A DNA stretch of 63,287 nucleotides, the filler included, from Reticulomyxa filosa (lineage: Eukaryota > Protista > Foraminifera), in the NCBI GenBank assembly GCA_000512085.1. It is 23 parts of 23 records of this genome, joined end to end, with 100 filler letters (N's around TTAATTAATTAA, not from the genome) between each part and the next. Parts side by side here need not be neighbours in the genome. Positions count along the whole stretch, not along the records: positions 43,256 to 47,279 come from ASPP01005109.1; 22 more parts are not named here. One strand, written 5' to 3'. Both the position numbers and the translations under genes were made by a program. Under the pieces are notes generated by a model that saw nothing but the letters and a program-made list of their open reading frames with translations, did not search any database and had not been told where the DNA came from. Below are positions 4,024 to 58,703 of this stretch, one piece after another (position 1 is the first letter of the stretch; each line of letters starts with the position of its first letter).

Positions 4024-4494
4024 TTGAAACAACCAAAGAATTGACTATTTTCAAAGGACATGAAGATGCTTTGAGGAGCGTAAAATATTCACCATATGAA
4101 ACAAATACAATGTGTTCTGGATCATTTGATAAAAGTATTCGTTTGTGGGATATTCGATCAAACATACAAATTAATATATTTAAGGGACATACAAATTCTG
4201 TAATGATTGTAGAATATTTACCATTTGTGAACAATAACAATAATAATGGAGATGGACCATCAATTATTAATTCGAATATAATATGTTCTGCATCACAATT
4301 CGTTTTTGGGACATTCGAAAAATAAACAATTGCATGTGATCAAAGGAAATGAACATGAAGATGGTGGAATATGTTCTCTTACATTTTCATCATTGAAAAA
4401 TAAAGAAAATGCAAGCAAAAAAACTGACGACAGTGTTTGCAATGTCAATTTGTGTTATGGTTCAAGAAAAGGTCCCATTCATATTTGGGGATAA
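4024..4494 (+). pseudogene. WD40 protein C-terminal fragment with frameshift/deletion
   Basis: FKGHEDALRSVKYSP..SGSFDKSIRLWD; last repeats shift frame near 4295; ends GPIHIWG* like the contig 1 family. Confidence 0.75.
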
Positions 4495-43084: not shown

Positions 43085-43280
43085 AAACATTACAAAAAAC
43101 AAATTTTTTATAAAAATTTCAAATAATCAAAAAAAGGTTTCAAAATTTTATTAAANNNNNNNNNNNNNNNNNNNNNNNNNNNNNNNNNNNNNNNNNNNNT
43201 TAATTAATTAANNNNNNNNNNNNNNNNNNNNNNNNNNNNNNNNNNNNNNNNNNNNAAAAAAAAAAAAAAAAAAAAAAAAC

Positions 43281-43789
43281 GGAACTTGCTCATCAGGACT
43301 AAATGTGTATATGACACAACACAATCTCAATTTGCATATTAATACTTGCTTTCTTTTTTCAACGTCTTGCACAAGCCGTAGCTGTGGCAAACGATATACC
43401 AATACGTCTTCTTTCGTGTATTGCCCTACTTTTTCCCATTTTGCTTCCAATACTTCAATGTCATTGGCCGCCTCTTCTTGCTCACCTTCTCCATTCTCGT
43501 TCGTCTCTTTATGGTCACTTGTGCTCATCACTACCCCCTTTGTTTCGACTCTTTCCTTTGCTCCATTCGTTTGGCTTGTGCTTGATGCTGACACGTTTTC
43601 GTGTCCGCTCTGTCCTTCGCTTCTGCTGTTCTCGTGTTTTTCACCGCCGCCACCACTACCACTCGGGTTGTATTCCGTATTTGCTTCCTTTGTTTGAGAA
43701 GAAAGAGAATCTTCAATGGATAATGTTGCATGCTTTGTATCTTTTGAATGCTCATTTTTTTTTTTGGATTTAAATAGATTACGAAACAT
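43281..43789 (-). CDS. PP2A regulatory subunit B56 (B'), first exon
   Basis: LPQLRLVQDVEKRKQVLICKLRLCCVIYTF matches the start of the B56 domain after a disordered N-terminus. Confidence 0.75.
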
Positions 43790-45414
43790 TTTTAGAGAGA
43801 GAAAATTATGTTATGATTTAATTAATAATTTTTTTTTTTTTTTCTCACACAAAGTATTTTCACTAAGCAGACAAAGTATGCTATTTTCTCAGATAGTAAG
43901 AACACTAGATTGTAGAGTGAATATTTGAAATTCAAGAACAATCGGGAATTGTTACAAATTTGATATTTTATCAGATGGAAATAATGAAACAATGAGTACA
44001 ATACTTTTAATATCATTATTAATAAAAAAACACCCAATTGAAACTAAAATGTTGAAAACACAAGTGTATGAAGTATTCAATGAACAATAGATTGATAATA
44101 TGTTAAGAACGTTTCAAATATCCAAAAAAAAAATGAATTATCAAAATTAAGAATTTTTTTTTAAAAAAAGTGTTTCGACAATATTGTCAACATTTAGTAT
44201 TTAAAGTATTTGTTTTAGGTATCGCAATAGAAAACGAAAGTATAAATTATAAAAGTAAAGAAACTTAAGTAATTTGGACTCAACCACCGAAAAAGTTAAA
44301 AGACAGATGAATTGTTTATAAATGTAAATGATATTCTATTATGAAAACAACATGTTTGATATCAAGAGAGTTGGCGATAACAAATATAACTTTTTACAAA
44401 TCTTTCAAAAAATATTGTGGTGCAAAATGATATTTGACATCCTTTTATGGAAACCAAATATTGTTGTCGATCATCGATAGTTTCAGTGGCAATTAAAAAC
44501 AGTGTTTTCAACACTACTATCAATTTCTAAGTACTAAATTCTCGCAAAATTATTTTAAAACGAATTGTGTGAGCATTGGATCCATTTGTATATAATTTTT
44601 GGATGTGTGGATTATTAATGATAATTTTATAATGAAAGCGACTAATTTATTTTTTTGCAAAAAGGTCTCTAATGAACTTGTTATTGTTTGTTGTGGCTGT
44701 TGTTTTTGTCTTTCTTGTATTAAATACTTATGGACTGCTTTTGAGTCATGCCGATCAAAGGACATGATAGTTTACGTAGTAAAAAAAATGTCACCAGTTT
44801 GATAATACAGTGATTTTATGCTCAAATACTAAAGATAGCATAGTATACATACTATTGGAGGAAATACAAAAATCGGAAAAATGTTAACGCAGATACTTAA
44901 AAATATAAGTGCTGCGCTCTTATACCATAATCGTCATTGTACTGCGTTTTTGAACTTCTAAAAAAGTTGGTCAAATCTTTCATTTAAAATTTTGTAATTT
45001 GTTATTGGACATTTTCTGGGCGATCAAACCTAAAAAGAATCCTTCAATAAAATAGGCATCCAAAGAATTTAAGGTCTGTTAAAAATTCTATCTTTAAGAA
45101 GTTTTTTTCTTGCGAAAGTGCGTCTTCCTTATCTTTTTTTTTTCATTCAAAAGCTCTACGACAAGAAAGGCGAGATAAAACAACTTGAGGTTGATTTTAT
45201 TATTTTTTTATTGTGTTTCGGATAACAGAGGAGCAAAAAAGAAATACTTTGTCCTTTGATCAAAAATAGATAACAATTGGCATATTTCCTAAAGTATTGC
45301 GTGCAAGTTTCCAAAATCACAGTTGATGATATAGATAATAATGATATATCTGCTATGAACAATAAGGATATGTATAACTTTGTTTTAATAGATAAAACAA
45401 AGTGCAAAGGAGGA

Positions 45415-47279
45415 ATGCAAGACAACAACAGCAATAATAATAATACAAATACCGCAAACGAAGAAGACAAGAAATATGAAAAGGAAATAAAAATATTGAC
45501 TCAACTATTCAGTGATTCTATCAACAAAGAAGAATTGAAAAAGAAAATAATAAATAATAATGGAAATATCGAATTGGTGCTAAAAGAACTTGTTCAATTA
45601 TTTATTGAAAATGAGGTATATTTATCTTGTTTTATTACAACTGATATTTTTTTTTTTTTGGTATTAAAAAGGAGAATATCGAACAGATAACAACAAAACT
45701 ATTTTATTTATTTTATGACATTTTTTTTTGTTATCTTTATGTTTCTGTTCTGGGATGGTGAATAGAAACAAGAACAAAAACAAGAAAACATAATGAACAT
45801 ATTCGACAATAATAATAAAAGTATAAAAAGGGAAATGGAAAAATCAGAAATTGGAGAAATAAAACCAGGAATTAATTTGCAAGGATATTGCATCAATGAA
45901 ATGTGTTTAGCATCAAAAGCGAAATTACCAGCATGGATTAATATTGGATTTAATAATATTACTTTTATTTCAGATAAAACTTCTTTTAATTGTCTTGATT
46001 GTAAAAAAGAAACAGTTACATCCATTGTTAAAGCAATGTTCTATAATTCCGAACATTCAATTTGTGCAAGTGGTGATTCAATATCTGTGAAGGATAATAA
46101 TTATCAATGTTCATATTCAATTAAATCTGGGCTATCTTATGAACTAAAAGCAAATAAGATTAAACAACATGCAAAGAGTATTGAAGATTTGAGAGAAAGG
46201 AGTGAAAATGCAATGAATAGTATTGAAATAAAGAATTTGGTGACAGAATTGCAGAAATACGAGATTACAGTAGTGAAACCACCAAGTTTGAAAGGAAATG
46301 AAAGATTATTAGAAAAGATTCAAGCAGACTATGGTGGTGATTTTAATCAAGCATTTGATATTGGAAGATTTACAATTTTATGTGATAATCCAACCAAATT
46401 ACAAACTGCAGTCACAGTTATGAAGAAAGCAGAACAATTTAATCTGGTCGTGTCTGAAGACAAAGATTTCTTTGATAAAAAATCAAAGACACATCATCGT
46501 TTTCATAATATTAAATTGTATGTTCCAAAACATGATGTATATATTGAAATGCAAGCAACATTGAAGAAATTCACAACATTGGAAGGATATACTGTCATTG
46601 AAAATCCAAAGTTAAGTCATTCATTTTATGAACATATTCGAGCATGGAAACCTAAAAATCAAAAGGAAGAGAAATTAAAACAACCAAGTGATGAAACATT
46701 GACCAAAATCAATGACATAATTTGTGAATGGATTGACGAAAAAGAAATTAAAAAAATTGCAAATCGATATAAACCACATTCAGAAATTCGAATATTGAAA
46801 CCCCCACAATTAAAAGGAATAAATGAAGAAGAAATTAATTCTCAAAAAGATACTGTATTAAAATTAACTAAATTTGTTTATGATCAACTTTGTAAATTCA
46901 ATCCAAAGGAAATGAAAGGACAAGCTGTTTATGTTATTTTATTTGAATTTTTTAAGAAGAATATTATGGGCGAAATGAATCCTGCAAGTTGTGCTGATGT
47001 TATATCAATATTAAAAAAATCAAGAAAACAAGAATTAGAAGAAGATACAACTATACTTCAAGCACTTGAGACATACATACCATTGCAAGCAAATAATTAT
47101 TTATACATTGATAGTGATGACAATGAAAAAAATGATTCATATGATTGTCATCAGCGCATAATTAACTTGTTAGTTGAACAAAAAGAAGAAAACAAAAATG
47201 ATCAACAACAACAACAAGTAGTCATATTGCAAGGAAAATCAGGATCAGGAAAGAGTTTATTTTGTCGTCATTTAGAAGA
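45415..47279 (+). CDS. NLR-like protein: CUE/UBA-like + Cys-rich + RelA/SpoT-like NTase + P-loop (NACHT-type) start, 3'-partial
   Basis: Phase-0 intron 45616-45765 joins ORFs in frame; PGINLQGYCINEMC..CLDC; LKGNERLLEKIQADYGGD..DIGRFTI..HRFHNI..IEMQ..SHSFYE; VVILQGKSGSGKS at 47218-47256. True start may lie further upstream. Confidence 0.8.
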
Positions 47280-47817
47280 NNNNNNNNNNNNNNNNNNNNN
47301 NNNNNNNNNNNNNNNNNNNNNNNTTAATTAATTAANNNNNNNNNNNNNNNNNNNNNNNNNNNNNNNNNNNNNNNNNNNNATGTCGGTAAATTTAATGAGT
47401 TTTTTTTTGACAAGGAACAAAAAATAAAAAAATCGTATATTACATAGCGTTGTTTGATTGAACACAAAAACTACGTTTCTCGCAATTTATTTTAGAACAC
47501 CACTCGTAATAGCAAAAAATAAAAAAAAATTGAAAAAAACTTGATTTTATCCTTGTATGCATTTCTACAAACTGAAACTATGCAAGGATATTCTCTTCAA
47601 CTTAAAAAAAGTAAAAAGAAATCATTATTTCCTATTTTATTTGAACTATTTAGAATTATTGCAACAGTCACTAAATCATAAAAAAGGCAATAATGTTGTG
47701 GGAAAATGCACTTCTTCCTGTAAAATAATCTTTTGTTTGTAAGTCATTTTTTACAAAGGAGAGTTTTATATAAGATTTTTGTTCCTTGTCAAAAAAAAAC
47801 TCATTAAATTTACCGAC

Positions 47818-49263
47818 ATGGCCGCAATGCAACAGCCAGATCCATTGTCTGATGATGAATTCCTCCTAACGAGTGAAAATGAAGGGGATAATATTGATCA
47901 AACAAAGAAAATAGTGAAGGATGAAGACGACAAAATTGGTAACACTCAAAAAGACAAATCAAAAATACTACCTGATATTGAAAGAATTTTGGAAATGGCC
48001 CTTGCTAAACTACCAACACCCAAAGCAAAAATATTAGCTAAAACATACACTAGGCTATCAAATCCTTTTTATTTTGGTGACTCGGCTGATGAAGTCGAAA
48101 ATAGATTGAAAAAACACTCAAGCGATTTATTTGCAGTAACCGCTACAATTGCGCCAAACCAAAAATATCGAAAAAGAAACGATACAATTAAGTATGAATG
48201 CTACCCCTTCCCTTGCAGAGCATCAAAAGATGCAGATTGTTCAAGGGGTGTATGCACAAGCTGTAACACGCATTTTTACTTGTATCACAAATACGAAAGT
48301 ATTTGGCAATTCCAATGTGGACATCATATTTGCAAAGACTGCGTCCATAAATATTTTGAAATATGTTATGAAAAACATTTAAGTTGGCCCAAAAGCTTGA
48401 ACAATTTTCATTCTATGTATATACGTAAATACAACATTCCTGACGATGTAGCATTTGCTCTGCGACAACTTGTCGAAGCAAAATGTGCACATTTGATAAA
48501 CGATGGGGAAACTTGTGATCAGTTTGTTTTTTGTCCATGCAATGATTCGCGCTGTACAAAGATTCGCGAATTTGCTGTTGGTCGTCATAACAGCAAAATG
48601 CAAATGGGAAAATTCCCAAAGTTTATTAGTTACTTCAATAATGAAGCAATACGAACACTTTTACGTTATTCAAAATATTTGCAGCATTGGAAATTAAAGA
48701 AAAAAGAATTGGAAATAAATTTTTCCGAAGATATATCAAAATCCAAAAGCAAAAGACACCAAGAAAATGGCACTGATGAAATGGATGGTTCCGACAAACT
48801 ATCAACGAACAAAGTACTTAAAAAAAGGGGTTTTAATGAAATGAAAAAAGAGGACACTCCCACTATGGAAAAAACTCCTGATCCTGAACGAGGAATAAAG
48901 CAACAAAAAACGAATGCTAGTGGAGTGCTACTATCTGCAACTTTTGCAGCATATATTGAAAGTCTATTGACGGAAATCAAAGAAACTCAATGTGCACAAC
49001 AACTACAGTACTTTCAGCAAGTACAACAAATCCAAAAACTCCAAAGAGATATGGACTATCTAACGAAAATGGTGATCAATGAACAGAAGATAGTACATAA
49101 TGAAGATAGCGCTGAAAAAAATCCAATGTTATTTCCGCATCATGGCAGTGGCAACGGATATTATGGACATTTTCAAGGCAGTCATTCTCAAGGTAGTCAT
49201 TTTCAAAACTTGGCAAACAATTTACTTGGAATGTCACCAACTGATGGAAATAAAATAATGTAA
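47818..49263 (+). CDS. RING-finger-like protein, intronless
   Basis: CTSC..QCGHHICKDC..KC pattern plus extra Cys cluster and Gln-rich coiled coil. Confidence 0.6.
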   Translation: MAAMQQPDPLSDDEFLLTSENEGDNIDQTKKIVKDEDDKIGNTQKDKSKILPDIERILEMALAKLPTPKAKILAKTYTRLSNPFYFGDSADEVENRLKKHSSDLFAVTATIAPNQKYRKRNDTIKYECYPFPCRASKDADCSRGVCTSCNTHFYLYHKYESIWQFQCGHHICKDCVHKYFEICYEKHLSWPKSLNNFHSMYIRKYNIPDDVAFALRQLVEAKCAHLINDGETCDQFVFCPCNDSRCTKIREFAVGRHNSKMQMGKFPKFISYFNNEAIRTLLRYSKYLQHWKLKKKELEINFSEDISKSKSKRHQENGTDEMDGSDKLSTNKVLKKRGFNEMKKEDTPTMEKTPDPERGIKQQKTNASGVLLSATFAAYIESLLTEIKETQCAQQLQYFQQVQQIQKLQRDMDYLTKMVINEQKIVHNEDSAEKNPMLFPHHGSGNGYYGHFQGSHSQGSHFQNLANNLLGMSPTDGNKIM

Positions 49264-49593: not shown

Positions 49594-49912
49594 CTTGAGC
49601 TACTGGTCTTTCTTGCGCTACTGGCCTTCCTTGCGCTACTGGCCTTCCTTGCGCTACTGGCCTTTCTTGCGCTATTGGCCTTCCTTGTCCTGCTTGTCTC
49701 CCTTGCGCTACTGGTCTTTCTTGCGCTACTGGCCTTCCTTGTCCTACTTGTCTCGCTTGCCCTACTTGCCTCCATTGCCCTACTTGCCTTCCTTGCGCTT
49801 CTGGTCTTCCTTGCCCTCCTTGTCTTCCTTGCCCTACTTGCCGTTCTTGCCTGATTTGCCTTGATTGCCCTACTTGCCTTACTTGTCGTTCTTGCCTTAG
49901 TTGTCTTCCTTG
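49594..49912 (-). repeat. 18-nt coding tandem repeat
   Basis: Units such as CAAGGAAGGCCAGTAGCG on - strand, diverging towards the 5' end. Confidence 0.9.
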
Positions 49913-50566
49913 ACTTCTTTCGTATTCTTCGTCCTCCTCTTCCTCTTCTTCATCTTCGCTGTCATTACCAATTAAAGAAGCCATTGATCCCAAGAAATTT
50001 GCGTGATTATCACGAAGCAAAATTGGCCCGATATTCGCGTTTGGATTGGTTCTCTCAAAGGGCACATAAAAAAAAAAGCGTTGCATATATTCCGAGGAAT
50101 CGCCAAGTCCGGGATGTCTGCGTGAAAAAAACTCCATAAACTGGGCATAAAATGGGTCCGAATCCGAGTTTTCGTCGTCGGTGCTCTCTTCGATAGTATG
50201 AGCTATGTTATGGGCTTCATTCAGCTTTTTCGGAAGAACAAAGGCGACACGAAATGTGCCTCCTTGACGAATTTGAATAACTTCAAATTGTTTTTGGCAT
50301 TGTGGACACCGTGTTTGATAGCTTTTTGCTTGGTTGATGCAGTCCACATGAAACTTGTGTCGACAGCAATGTCCCAATCGCGCATACGAGCAATTGCTGT
50401 TGGGATTGGTGTTGATCGAATCCAAGCATATGCACAGTTTATTTGATCGCTTTCTTTTTTCGCAATACAAGTTTTCAACCTCAAACGTGTTGCCGAGATG
50501 GTTCAAGCATGTACTGTGCGGTTGTTCAAGAAAATGAGCCACTAACGCCAAGGTTCTTACGTCCAT
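49594..50566 (-). CDS. RING-H2 protein with acidic tract and hexapeptide repeats, 3'-partial
   Basis: CICLD..CCRHKFHVDCI..RCPQC; then QGRPVA/QERPVA/QGRQVG repeats. Confidence 0.75.
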
Positions 50567-56790: not shown

Positions 56791-57117
56791 AAAAGACACT
56801 TTTCAACTTTTTTTTAAGCTCACAAAGGGCCAATAAAATTGAAATGAATTTGTTTTATTTACTAAATATAAATTTTGTAATGAGAACAATAAGAATTTTT
56901 TTCTAGTTTCCTCAATTATAGGAAATGGTAATTTGAATGCACAAGAACGTACAATTGAATGTGAATTATTTTTTTAAAAGACTCATTTTAAACAATTCCC
57001 ATTAATAGTTTACAAAATATTTTCAAATTGGATTATTGAATTAGAGTCATTCTTTGTTCAATGTTTTTTCATTGGCTATTTAAAATTCCCTTTTTGCAAA
57101 TATGCAATTAGTCCATA

Positions 57118-57240
57118 GATACGTTTGAAGGACATAATGAAGTTATTAATTGCATTTATTTATCATTTGATGATTTAAAATCAGTGTCATGTCCTCGTGA
57201 TAAAACAATTCGATGATGAGATAGTGATAAAGAAAAAATC
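57118..57240 (+). pseudogene. Isolated WD40 repeat remnant
   Basis: TFEGHNEVINCI..RDKTIR* with stops. Confidence 0.5.
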
Positions 57241-58024
57241 ATCGACGTAATGATACAACCAAAAATACAGACATCACCGTTATTTATTTATAAAGGAAAA
57301 TCACTATTGTTCTGAACAGAACAATCTTTCAAATCAAAAACAAATTTCAATTCATTTTAGAAATTGTCTCTGTTTTCTACTCTAATTTTATCCAGAAAAA
57401 TCTAGATTAATATTTACTTCCGAGTATAAATAATTTGTAGTTTCTATTTTAAAAAATAATAAAAAATTAAAATTAAAACAAAGGTTGTATATTTTAAGCA
57501 AAACCTTTTTCGCAATGGTCTAAAGAAATATCAATTCATGCTTTGTGCATCAAATGCCTTTTACGATAAAGTAATTTGAAAAGGAAGTATAAACTTTTCA
57601 AAGTAATTTACGAAAACATATCATTATGTAATTTATGTTTCAAAGTCGGATACATAATTTTACTTTCAAGCTTGCAAACAATATCAATTTAAAAATAAGA
57701 AACAAACACATTTAAAGTTTATAAAAGCTGTACTAAATTACACTTTTTATCTCAGAATTAAATTCTTTTTGTTTTCAAACATTTTTTAAAACTACAAAGC
57801 TGTTTTTAAAGTTTTTGTTGAAAAAAACTTGTTCAAAACTGAGTATGCACGCATAACACAAGTTTTTAAAAATTTCTTATCTTTATGAAAAAGAAACATA
57901 TGTATTGTTAAAATACTATTTTTCATGTTGCTAAAATATTTTTAAAAACCCCTTTCGCTGCCCTTGACAGGAAAAAGTTCAATATCTTCCATTTTACATC
58001 ATCAAAAACAATCTTAAAAAAAAA

Positions 58025-58703
58025 ATGACAACTCTTGGCAATGAGAAGCGAACGTCAACACAACTAGAATTGGTAAGCTTTATTACAATCGTTCAGAAAG
58101 ATGTTGCATTTTTTAGTTTATTTTTATTGTATTTAATTTGTGGTCTAAACAGTTTGAAGAAGAAAAGATTCAAGTAATTATACAACATTGGATTCGAATA
58201 TTGAAAATCAAATTAGGATGGATTCATGAGTTTGACAAACTTGTTGTCAATTATGTTAGTTCATTTGTTCTTTCTTTTTTTTAAATACTAAATATTCAAA
58301 TGTTTATTTAATAGATATATACTATTTTCATGTTTGAGACATTTCGTTCATCATCCAAATTAATTAATACATTCACTGGACACACTAATTCGGTGTTTAG
58401 TATTGATTATTCAACATTCGATGATGGTCGATTCATTTGTTCTGGATCACGCGATAATACAATTCTTGTATGGGATGTTGATAATAACAAACAAATTCGA
58501 TCATTCAATGGACATTCAAGTTATGTGTATTGTGTGAAATTTTCATCATATCATTATCATAATCATCATCAAAATGTTATTTGTTCTTCATCATATGACA
58601 AAATAATTCGTTTTTGGGATTTCAAACATAATCAACAATTACAAATATTCAATGGACACACCAATGGTGTTTGTGGTATTGAATTTTCACAATTTAATGG
58701 TGG
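58025..58703 (+). CDS. WD40 repeat protein, 3'-partial, multi-exon
   Basis: MTTLGNEK exon; IQVIIQHWIRILKIKLGWIHEFDKLVVNY exon; FTGHTNSV..SGSRDNTILVWD, close paralogue of 1270-1650. Confidence 0.85.

Follow-up and report, generated by a model that had tools for sequence, protein, structure and literature searches.

A RelA/SpoT-type synthetase domain joined to a NACHT module in a protein family of the foraminiferan Reticulomyxa filosa

RelA/SpoT homologue (RSH) domains were described in 2014 as N-terminal effectors of fungal NOD-like receptors (NLRs), including forms that carry NACHT and WD40 regions (Dyrka et al. 2014, PMC4986451), and the RelA_SpoT domain is also among the effector profiles of PMC9815663. 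In Sordariales the class is a minor one, with 14 T-NACHT NLRs, or 82% of the RelA_SpoT class, among 3324 annotated (PMC12258605). Alarmone synthetases have likewise been listed among the effectors of bacterial NACHT proteins by Kibby et al. (10.1101/2022.07.19.500537), who proposed that animals and fungi acquired NACHT modules from intracellular bacteria. Eukaryotic alarmone hydrolases (Mesh1) are widespread, and synthetases outside plastids are sporadic (Atkinson 2011, PMC3153485). Here we describe an RSH synthetase domain that precedes a NACHT module in a protein of Reticulomyxa filosa. Its gene lies on a contig of 4024 bases (ASPP01005109.1) at positions 43256-47279 of the window, a stretch of 63,287 nucleotides made of short contigs parted by N spacers. 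All positions below count along the whole window.

A sequence-only reading of this locus had proposed a candidate eukaryotic NLR with an alarmone-synthetase effector. The RelA_SpoT-NACHT-WD40 architecture itself is already known, so the novelty it had considered does not extend to the layout, which has been published for fungi (PMC4986451, PMC12258605) and listed for bacteria (10.1101/2022.07.19.500537). As far as our searches reach, what is new is the toxin-type enzyme, the role that it has as standard effector throughout a large foraminiferan family, its altered acceptor loop, and a link to a probable symbiont protein. We found no published account of a Reticulomyxa RSH-NACHT family, which might be mentioned in the R. 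filosa genome paper or in the supplements of Kibby et al. (10.1101/2022.07.19.500537). The words Reticulomyxa, rhizaria and foraminifer do not occur in the accessible text of the latter, the supplements of PMC12691689 contain neither Reticulomyxa nor NACHT, and the accessible text of a 2025 review of fungal cell death (PMC12881547) makes no mention of RelA, ppGpp or alarmone.

The reading that we favor, with a probability of about 0.5, is that these proteins are NLR-type immune or non-self receptors whose Apk1-like synthetase would drain ATP.

The synthetase domain and its subtype

The motifs quoted in the sequence-only reading all lie in one frame of a long open reading frame (ORF): SLKGNERLLEK (residues 165-175), DYGGD (179-183), DIGRFTI (189-195), HRFHNI (235-240), YIEMQAT (250-256), SHSFYE (275-280) and, 196 residues after the last of these, VVILQGKSGSGKS (476-488). 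Their order is that of RelA/SpoT synthetases, as had been claimed, but the Arg stands at Asp+3 (DxxR, the Apk1 type) rather than at the canonical Asp+5. In the proposed equivalent of the YxSxH motif, the residue that matches the canonical His is Asn239 and not His238.

Pfam RelA_SpoT matches the window protein with an E-value of 0.0063 and 17.2 bits, which is under the PF04607 gathering score (27 bits), as are most Apk1-like relatives, and the two-domain paralogue P0002 reaches 30.2 bits. AlphaFold2 models were made of the domain and of all 495 residues, with predicted local distance difference test (pLDDT) scores of 75 and 80, respectively. Tas1 is the first Foldseek match for both models, and for the domain model (E 1.1e-7) it is followed by RelP and RelQ, with all of these at E 1e-7 to 1e-6. 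VIA-align comparisons with RSH synthetases give Z scores of 10-12 and root-mean-square deviations (rmsd) of 3-4 Å over 119-163 residues, with near ties for the domain model among Rel (Z 11.3), Tas1 (10.7, 151 residues, rmsd 3.4), RelP (10.6) and CapRel (10.0). The larger model consists of three folded units, namely an all-beta domain with four conserved cysteines (Cys4), the synthetase and a helical linker. A profile of 76 relatives from outside Reticulomyxa scores the ORF at 121.6 bits, compared with at most 16.8 bits for 1000 shuffles, a difference that is partly circular because the relatives were gathered with the family's own profile. The models confirm that residues 128-314 are an RSH synthetase with the Pol-beta-type nucleotidyltransferase fold of Rel, RelP and RelQ, which is the fold that the sequence-only reading had expected.

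The catalytic residues are intact. Within the family, D189 is kept in 93 of 94 sequences, E252 in 90 of 91, Q254 in 94 of 95 and K167 in 92 of 93, with similar values for K175 (91/92), H276 (95/97) and Y279 (97/97). The D, E, Q, H and Y residues align with the same residues in six canonical synthetases, and 72 of the 78 paralogous synthetase domains that span the nine family-invariant positions have all of them intact. This conservation includes the Asp and Glu singled out earlier, and the domain is very likely an active pyrophosphokinase.

When the family profile was compared with 177,635 PDB sequences, the only match was Tas1/Apk1 (E 1e-5). Residues D189, R192, N239 and E252 align with D306, R309, N349 and E361 of the Tas1 chain, and an offset of 21 takes the last three to R330, N370 and E382 of Apk1, all of which are listed as active-site residues of that enzyme (PMC12691689). 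The canonical motifs RxKxxxSxxxK, DxxAxR and GYxSxH are absent, and the family instead has KxxxRxxxK, DxxR and an Asn in place of His. The six canonical synthetases, used as controls, have Ala at position 192 and His at 239, and this His, present in all six (p)ppGpp synthetases, is replaced in the family by Asn in 92 of 98 sequences. The Apk1-type signature KxxxRxxxK-DYxGD-DxxR is present in the family, and among the 76 relatives K167, K175, D189 and E252 are found in every sequence, R171 in 74 and R192 in 75.

A search of 1.84 billion representative sequences with the family profile gave 122 matches. Those at greater distance (E 5e-10 to 1e-3) have in common KxxxRxxxK, DYxGD, DxxR, GYRD, ExQ and HxxY, and the 82 that were scanned include fusions to extracellular contractile injection system (eCIS), MuF, portal, TPR, LRR and DUF285 domains, of which the eCIS, MuF and portal fusions are typical of exported toxins. 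RelA/SpoT-like toxin domains have been described on type VII secretion, XopAD and MuF carriers (Zhang 2012, PMC3482391). A first, quick RSH tree with long branches was superseded by a smaller and more careful one of 40 rows, to which the six canonical synthetases were added and from which the long-branch sequence P0167 and 57 other rows of 91 were left out. In the best tree from these rows, whose relatives were chosen by similarity to the family, the family is nested among Apk1-like sequences and the canonical RSHs are on a 100/100 branch. By its signatures and its closest sequence match, the enzyme is likely of the Apk1/Tas1-like type rather than a housekeeping RelA/SpoT. A parallel had been drawn to toxic small alarmone synthetases and CapRel. 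Among characterized enzymes, Tas1/Apk1 is closer to the domain than CapRel, RelP or RelQ.

The CapRel comparison also bears on a different target. If the domain pyrophosphorylated the 3' end of RNA, such as the CCA end of tRNA in the manner of CapRel and FaRel2, activation would block translation. CapRel structures are matched with Z scores of 10.0-10.6, the acceptor is an adenosine in both reactions (PMC11245113), and the family has a specific basic residue, K241, and a reshaped acceptor loop. However, the PDB search found no sequence similarity to CapRel or FaRel2, the FaRel2 complex is matched with a Z score of only 5.8, and the signatures are those of Apk1, which leaves an RNA target improbable.

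Some relatives have gene contexts of their own. In a weak phage match, an Apk-like domain has a portal gene on its 5' side and a small ORF plus an HD hydrolase gene on its 3' side. This module, in Bordetella phage PHB04 (L001:1571-3836), encodes a portal protein, a protein annotated as "hypothetical" that ends in the Apk-like synthetase, a 69-residue ORF and the HD hydrolase, and resembles the apk2-tis-aph layout described in PMC10083569. Its relatives occur in three further viral contigs and in a copy of the same phage. In a Francisellaceae genome (L013:1171-1971), a stand-alone Apk-like synthetase with a hydrophobic N-terminus is followed by a gene that looks MutT/Nudix-like by eye. Apk1-like domains are also fused to TPR, LRR, EF-hand, C1 or DUF285 repeats in P0155, P0158, P0171, P0174, P0180, P0182, P0198, P0200, P0201, P0206 and P0214. 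Several of these look algal or protist by their domains, and they possibly represent a wider, unrecognized eukaryotic group.

The putative receptor family and its relatives

Nearly all matches come from R. filosa (102 of 104 among longer proteins and 34 of 37 among shorter ones), although the number of genes is uncertain because each entry stands for a cluster at 90% identity and many of the models are partial. Among the 105 proteins examined, 64 have both the RSH motif and Walker A, 60 of these also have Walker B, and 38 have in addition at least three WD repeats. The 38 complete members have the order Cys4 domain, RSH synthetase, helical domain, NACHT, pentapeptide repeats and WD40 repeats. 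Pfam confirms NACHT and WD40 in the paralogues, and the pentapeptide repeats are taken from precomputed domains.

The window copy is cut off within its NACHT module, where Pfam families of the NACHT type match the final 20-30 residues. Pfam NACHT itself matches 20 residues with an E-value of 0.062, compared with 6e-10 in P0002, and its WD40 region would lie beyond the contig end. It is collinear with the full-length protein P0006, at 73% identity over 45460-47277. The sequence-only reading had based the NACHT assignment on Walker A and its context. The assignment now holds for the family on a broader basis, because paralogues carry a Pfam NACHT domain and a Walker B motif of the form hhhDGxDE, and full-length paralogues have the sensor repeats predicted past the contig end. 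The RSH fold, the conserved Asp and Glu and the STAND-class P-loop (signal transduction ATPases with numerous domains), the lack of any of which would have counted against the proposal, were all found.

The Cys4 domain is all-beta in the model (pLDDT about 90), and its residues C33, C38, C67 and C70 are retained in 33-34 of the 34-35 rows with coverage there. Look-alike eukaryotic clusters were found at 0.90-0.93 in the Atlas. No known fold could be assigned, the best structural match having a Z score of 6.5 when the domain was searched as part of the 495-residue model. Close relatives of the family at 45-71% identity occur in metagenomic records (P0070, P0094, P0112 and P0125), and the family may therefore extend beyond the R. 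filosa assembly.

Two members depart from the common layout. P0002 has tandem Cys4-RSH units before NACHT, the first degenerate (lacking the His of HxxY) and the second intact. P0078, annotated as a "vcbs repeat-containing protein" of R. filosa, has a hydrophobic N-terminus, a repeat-like ectodomain, one predicted membrane helix near residue 425 and a coiled coil. It ends in a Cys4-RSH-helical unit with intact motifs and without NACHT, which would be a receptor-type use of the same enzyme.

The nearest fusion outside the family is P0156, a protein of 1170 residues from an ENA metagenome record, which has a hydrophobic N-terminus, ankyrin repeats and an RSH-NACHT fusion. This fusion is collinear with P0006 over the synthetase and on through NACHT (E 3e-70). 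Both trees place P0156 with the family, together with P0150 and P0151 in the RSH tree (97/98) and with P0231-P0234 and L007 in the NACHT tree (100/98). Of 54 candidate rows for the NACHT trees, 4 that were without an end motif were dropped, and the careful run used 28 rows. The gene L007 belongs to an uncultured member of the Bacteroidota with a genome of 0.9 Mb. In the family of this bacterium, ATP/ADP translocases are present in 45 of 48 genomes, compared with none of 14 controls. Such translocases are a mark of intracellular energy parasites. Farther out in the NACHT comparison are proteins of Francisellaceae, Mycoavidus/Glomeribacter and Mortierellaceae. Among 68 related NACHT proteins that were scanned, only P0156 has a synthetase, and the others have different N-terminal domains. 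No relatives were found with the family profile in viral contigs, plasmids or JGI metagenome contigs. Proteins of the P0150/P0151/P0156 type were likewise not found in metagenome contigs, nor was P0156 itself in GTDB genomes.

Because P0156 groups with the family in both trees and its NACHT clade includes L007, it is plausible that the RSH-NACHT fusion passed in one piece, already assembled, between this family's lineage and an intracellular bacterium, in either direction. None of the 82 distant matches was recognized as a fungal RelA_SpoT-NACHT protein, and only P0156 among them had NACHT. The foraminiferan fusion therefore probably arose independently of the fungal one.

The related NACHT proteins are themselves varied. 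L007:2254-10047 encodes a NACHT-pentapeptide-WD40 protein of 2597 residues with near-identical repeats that vary at two or three positions, it is flanked by two near-identical ATPase-like genes of 577 residues, and a second similar locus (L008) is present in the same genome. L009:236-5776 (Francisellaceae) and P0235 (metagenome) have a NACHT-WD40 chassis with PARP-like N-terminal regions, assigned by PF00644 for P0235 and by eye for L009.

Gene model and contig

The coordinates of the gene and of a nearby relic are collected in Table 1. The long ORF begins at 45793 on the plus strand and reaches the contig end at 47279 (in frame to 47277), where the N spacer from 47280 cuts off its 3' part. 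It corresponds to the partial protein RFI_05965 of R. filosa (P0003), with 100% identity over the query in a homologue search with the candidate domain. When window positions 45616-47279 are compared with P0003, the NCBI model extends into the probable intron, skips a short stretch near residue 380 and ends before Walker A, and for this reason RFI_05965 is without domain annotation. The probable intron would join a first exon to the long ORF in frame. The exon segment matches the N-terminus of 42 of the 105 family proteins and looks UBA/CUE-like by eye only, with no Pfam match at E<1.

Table 1. Features of the RSH-NACHT gene and of the relic upstream of it, in window positions
Feature	Positions	Strand	Basis or detail
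Relic: decayed fragments of another family member's post-NACHT region in different frames (pseudogene)	44019..44516	+	tblastn with P0006, E 2e-8 to 1e-6
First exon (probable), coding for a small helical segment at the N-terminus (MQDNN...ENE)	45415..45615	+	In-frame ATG at 45415
Probable spliceosomal intron, GT...AG, 150 nucleotides, phase 0	45616..45765	+	Donor GAG/GTATAT, acceptor AATAG/AAA
Cys4 beta-sandwich domain (GxNLxGxC...CxxC), predicted zinc-binding	45841..46167	+	Conserved Cys, model
RSH (RelA/SpoT) synthetase domain, Apk1/Tas1-like type (likely), residues 128-314	46174..46734	+	Pfam, PDB profile search, Foldseek, VIA-align
Synthetase key residues K167, R171, K175, D189, R192, N239, E252, Q254, H276, Y279	46357-46359 (D189), 46546-46548 (E252)		
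Helical linker domain between synthetase and NACHT	46735..47073	+	Helices 316-426 in model
NACHT module start, truncated by contig end	47074..47279	+	Walker A GKSGSGKS at 47233-47256

The helical linker has a mean identity of 60% among 38 paralogues. The relic consists of three short fragments about 0.9 kb upstream of the gene. No gene for an immunity protein or a hydrolase was found beside the synthetase on the 4 kb contig, and a repeat search of 43256-47279 gave low-complexity chance pairs only. The window protein has no match in PADLOC, a single uninformative Walker A match in NCBIfam (E 0.06), and in PHROGs a match to one unnamed family (E 0.003).

The nearest outside relatives of the gene look bacterial, as would be expected if the contig were bacterial contamination of the assembly. 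However, the gene has a predicted in-frame GT-AG intron and a first exon that recurs across the family, more than 100 paralogues lie on separate short contigs, and the Cys4 domain has eukaryotic look-alikes. The GC content of 28% is within the range of the window, and there is no close match in prokaryote-type collections. Contamination is thus highly improbable.

WD40-repeat fragments like the sensor region of the family are present on other contigs of the window, at 1252-2237, 4026-4268, 57112-57249 and 58318-58701. The contigs that follow carry two unrelated ORFs with weak RING-finger matches, at 47812-49263 (plus strand) and 49595-50566 (minus strand), and the C-terminal end of the second is a tandem repeat rich in Gln, Gly and Arg.

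Proposed function and comparison with known systems

The freshwater foraminiferan R. filosa has a body that forms a multinucleate network. In the mechanism that we propose, the WD40 repeats would bind a foreign ligand, and the NACHT module would then switch on through nucleotide exchange and assembly and release the synthetase. The enzyme would transfer pyrophosphate from ATP to the 3'-OH of adenine nucleotides, and the resulting ATP drain would put out of action a sector of the syncytium that is infected or has fused wrongly. Ligand sensing, NACHT-controlled release and (p)ppApp synthesis are suggested because of what is known of NLR and Apk1 biology, and Apk1 kills through depletion of ADP and ATP. 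Control of the synthetase in the manner of an NLR is probable, whereas (p)ppApp as the main product is a possibility at somewhat less than even odds.

The sensor region is variable. Among 386 repeats, the most variable of the 42 repeat positions are 16, 34, 18 and 15, which are spaced like positions 12, 30, 14 and 11 of HET-E, respectively, where high dN/dS has been reported (PMC12222747). This variability fits a diversified binding face and is not a test of selection. The family might instead have no immune role, being a domesticated or selfishly amplifying symbiont effector that serves general signaling or is functionless in most copies. NACHT-pentapeptide-WD40 relatives with varied N-terminal enzymes do occur in host-associated bacteria, and relics and degenerate copies exist in the family, but NLR families, too, typically undergo birth-and-death turnover that leaves relics. 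Since the catalytic residues are also kept in most domains across 45-96% identity and variation is concentrated on the sensor face, we regard a non-immune role as improbable.

Several points weigh against a receptor with a toxic, ATP-draining output. Variability of the top face is common to WD40 propellers, and the six variable positions, at 15% identity compared with 59% elsewhere, were picked after seeing the data. The repeats are 57% identical within proteins and 51% between them (315 repeats, 38 proteins), so that homogenization like that of HET-E is lacking. The synthetase is the most conserved region of the 38 full-length paralogues, at a mean identity of 77% compared with 65% for the NACHT core and 52% for WD40, which speaks for selection on activity, but its value is inflated because the set was found with an RSH query. 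For the enzyme, a ranking by structure only leaves Tas1 tied with Rel and with RelP/RelQ (Z 10.7 vs 11.3 and 11.9 vs 12.1), and approximately unbiased tests reject neither a grouping with the canonical long RSHs (p 0.28) nor one with the Tas1 subgroup (p 0.29). For the origin, the queries used gave no RSH of the P0156 type in any of the 48 genomes from the Bacteroidota family, where 11 weak matches cover the ankyrin part only.

The likely product is affected by two further points of this kind. The acceptor loop, G-Y-R-D in the relatives (67, 62, 58 and 54 of 76, respectively), has become H-H-R-F in the family. Thus the GY acceptor-stacking loop of Apk1/Tas1 is replaced by H234-H235, with Tyr at 235 in 12 of 97 sequences, and P0156 is intermediate with HYRD. 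With this change the substrate, and hence the product, may differ. In addition, Asn is present at position 239 in only 16 of the 76 relatives, and among Apk1 homologues SaEAS, which has Asn there, makes both pppApp and pppGpp, and VpEAS makes pppGpp only (PMC12691689). We therefore rejected Asn239 as proof of adenine specificity.

The same loop bears on the main rival explanation, in which an identical receptor slowly makes a second messenger instead of depleting ATP. The messenger, (p)ppGpp or a novel pyrophosphorylated nucleotide, would act on a downstream receptor or serve to manipulate engulfed or symbiotic bacteria. The conservation of the HHRF loop across the family is in favor of this reading, as are the Apk1 homologues with guanine or mixed specificity (PMC12691689). 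P0078 presents the Cys4-RSH-helical unit as the tail of a membrane protein, as expected of a reusable signaling output, and manipulation of bacteria was proposed for the fungal analogues (Dyrka et al. 2014, PMC4986451). However, the canonical His of (p)ppGpp synthetases is gone and the nearest characterized relatives are toxins. We also know of no receptor for such a signal in Rhizaria. A second-messenger output consequently appears unlikely, if less so than the other alternatives.

Returning to the receptor with toxic output, we consider a broader version of it only tentatively. The family might descend from a captured secreted RSH-NACHT effector of an intracellular Bacteroidota symbiont that was amplified to dozens to more than 100 receptor genes. 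Their common output would be a pyrophosphorylated nucleotide with a toxic or signaling action, either (p)ppApp or a novel compound specified by the HHRF loop. Alarmones would thereby serve innate immunity or self/non-self recognition in a eukaryotic cytoplasm, and other proteins, probably of algae or protists, would carry related Apk1-like domains on TPR and LRR repeats. If true, it would be a further NLR exchange with an intracellular bacterium, here with the effector attached.

The known systems each share part of this design. Tas1/Apk1, Apk2 and the exported alarmone synthetases (PDB 6OX6; PMC10083569; PMC12691689) have the same fold, the motifs KxxxRxxxK, DYxGD, DxxR, ExQ and HxxY, and Asn at the N370 position. 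The R. filosa proteins differ from Tas1/Apk1 in having an NLR fusion, which is cytoplasmic, instead of a secretion domain, a eukaryotic host, HHRF instead of GYSG/GYRD, and no adjacent immunity gene on the contig. CapRel (PDB 7ZTB, 9ERV) is also an RSH toxin held in cis and released on sensing a foreign protein, a feature that is predicted here. However, CapRel is without NACHT or WD40, targets tRNA and has no detected sequence similarity to the R. filosa domain. The bacterial NACHT proteins of Kibby et al. (10.1101/2022.07.19.500537) have the effector-NACHT-repeat layout in common with the family, although the alarmone effector there is a listed, putative one. Podospora HET-D/HET-E (HNWD) proteins (PMC12222747) share NACHT-WD40 with variable positions at matching intervals, whereas they have effectors of the HET/TIR type and near-identical repeats maintained by concerted evolution, which the R. 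filosa family lacks.

The closest parallel is with the fungal RelA_SpoT-NACHT-WD40/ANK NLRs, in which an RSH domain is also N-terminal to NACHT, the sensor is WD40, the host is a eukaryote and the effector is putatively a direct enzymatic one. The R. filosa proteins have extra Cys4 and helical domains, and their NACHT is of the pentapeptide-WD40 type found in Mycoavidus and Mortierellaceae. Alarmone synthesis and use in the eukaryotic cytoplasm is a standing question, and if the enzyme is active, nucleotide pyrophosphorylation would join the effector chemistries of eukaryotic NLRs. In fungi the RelA_SpoT effector has been a rare annotation since 2014, whereas the protist R. filosa appears to use the same logic for the standard effector throughout a large family of putative receptors, in a 190-residue domain with intact catalytic residues that is predicted to be a toxin-type enzyme.

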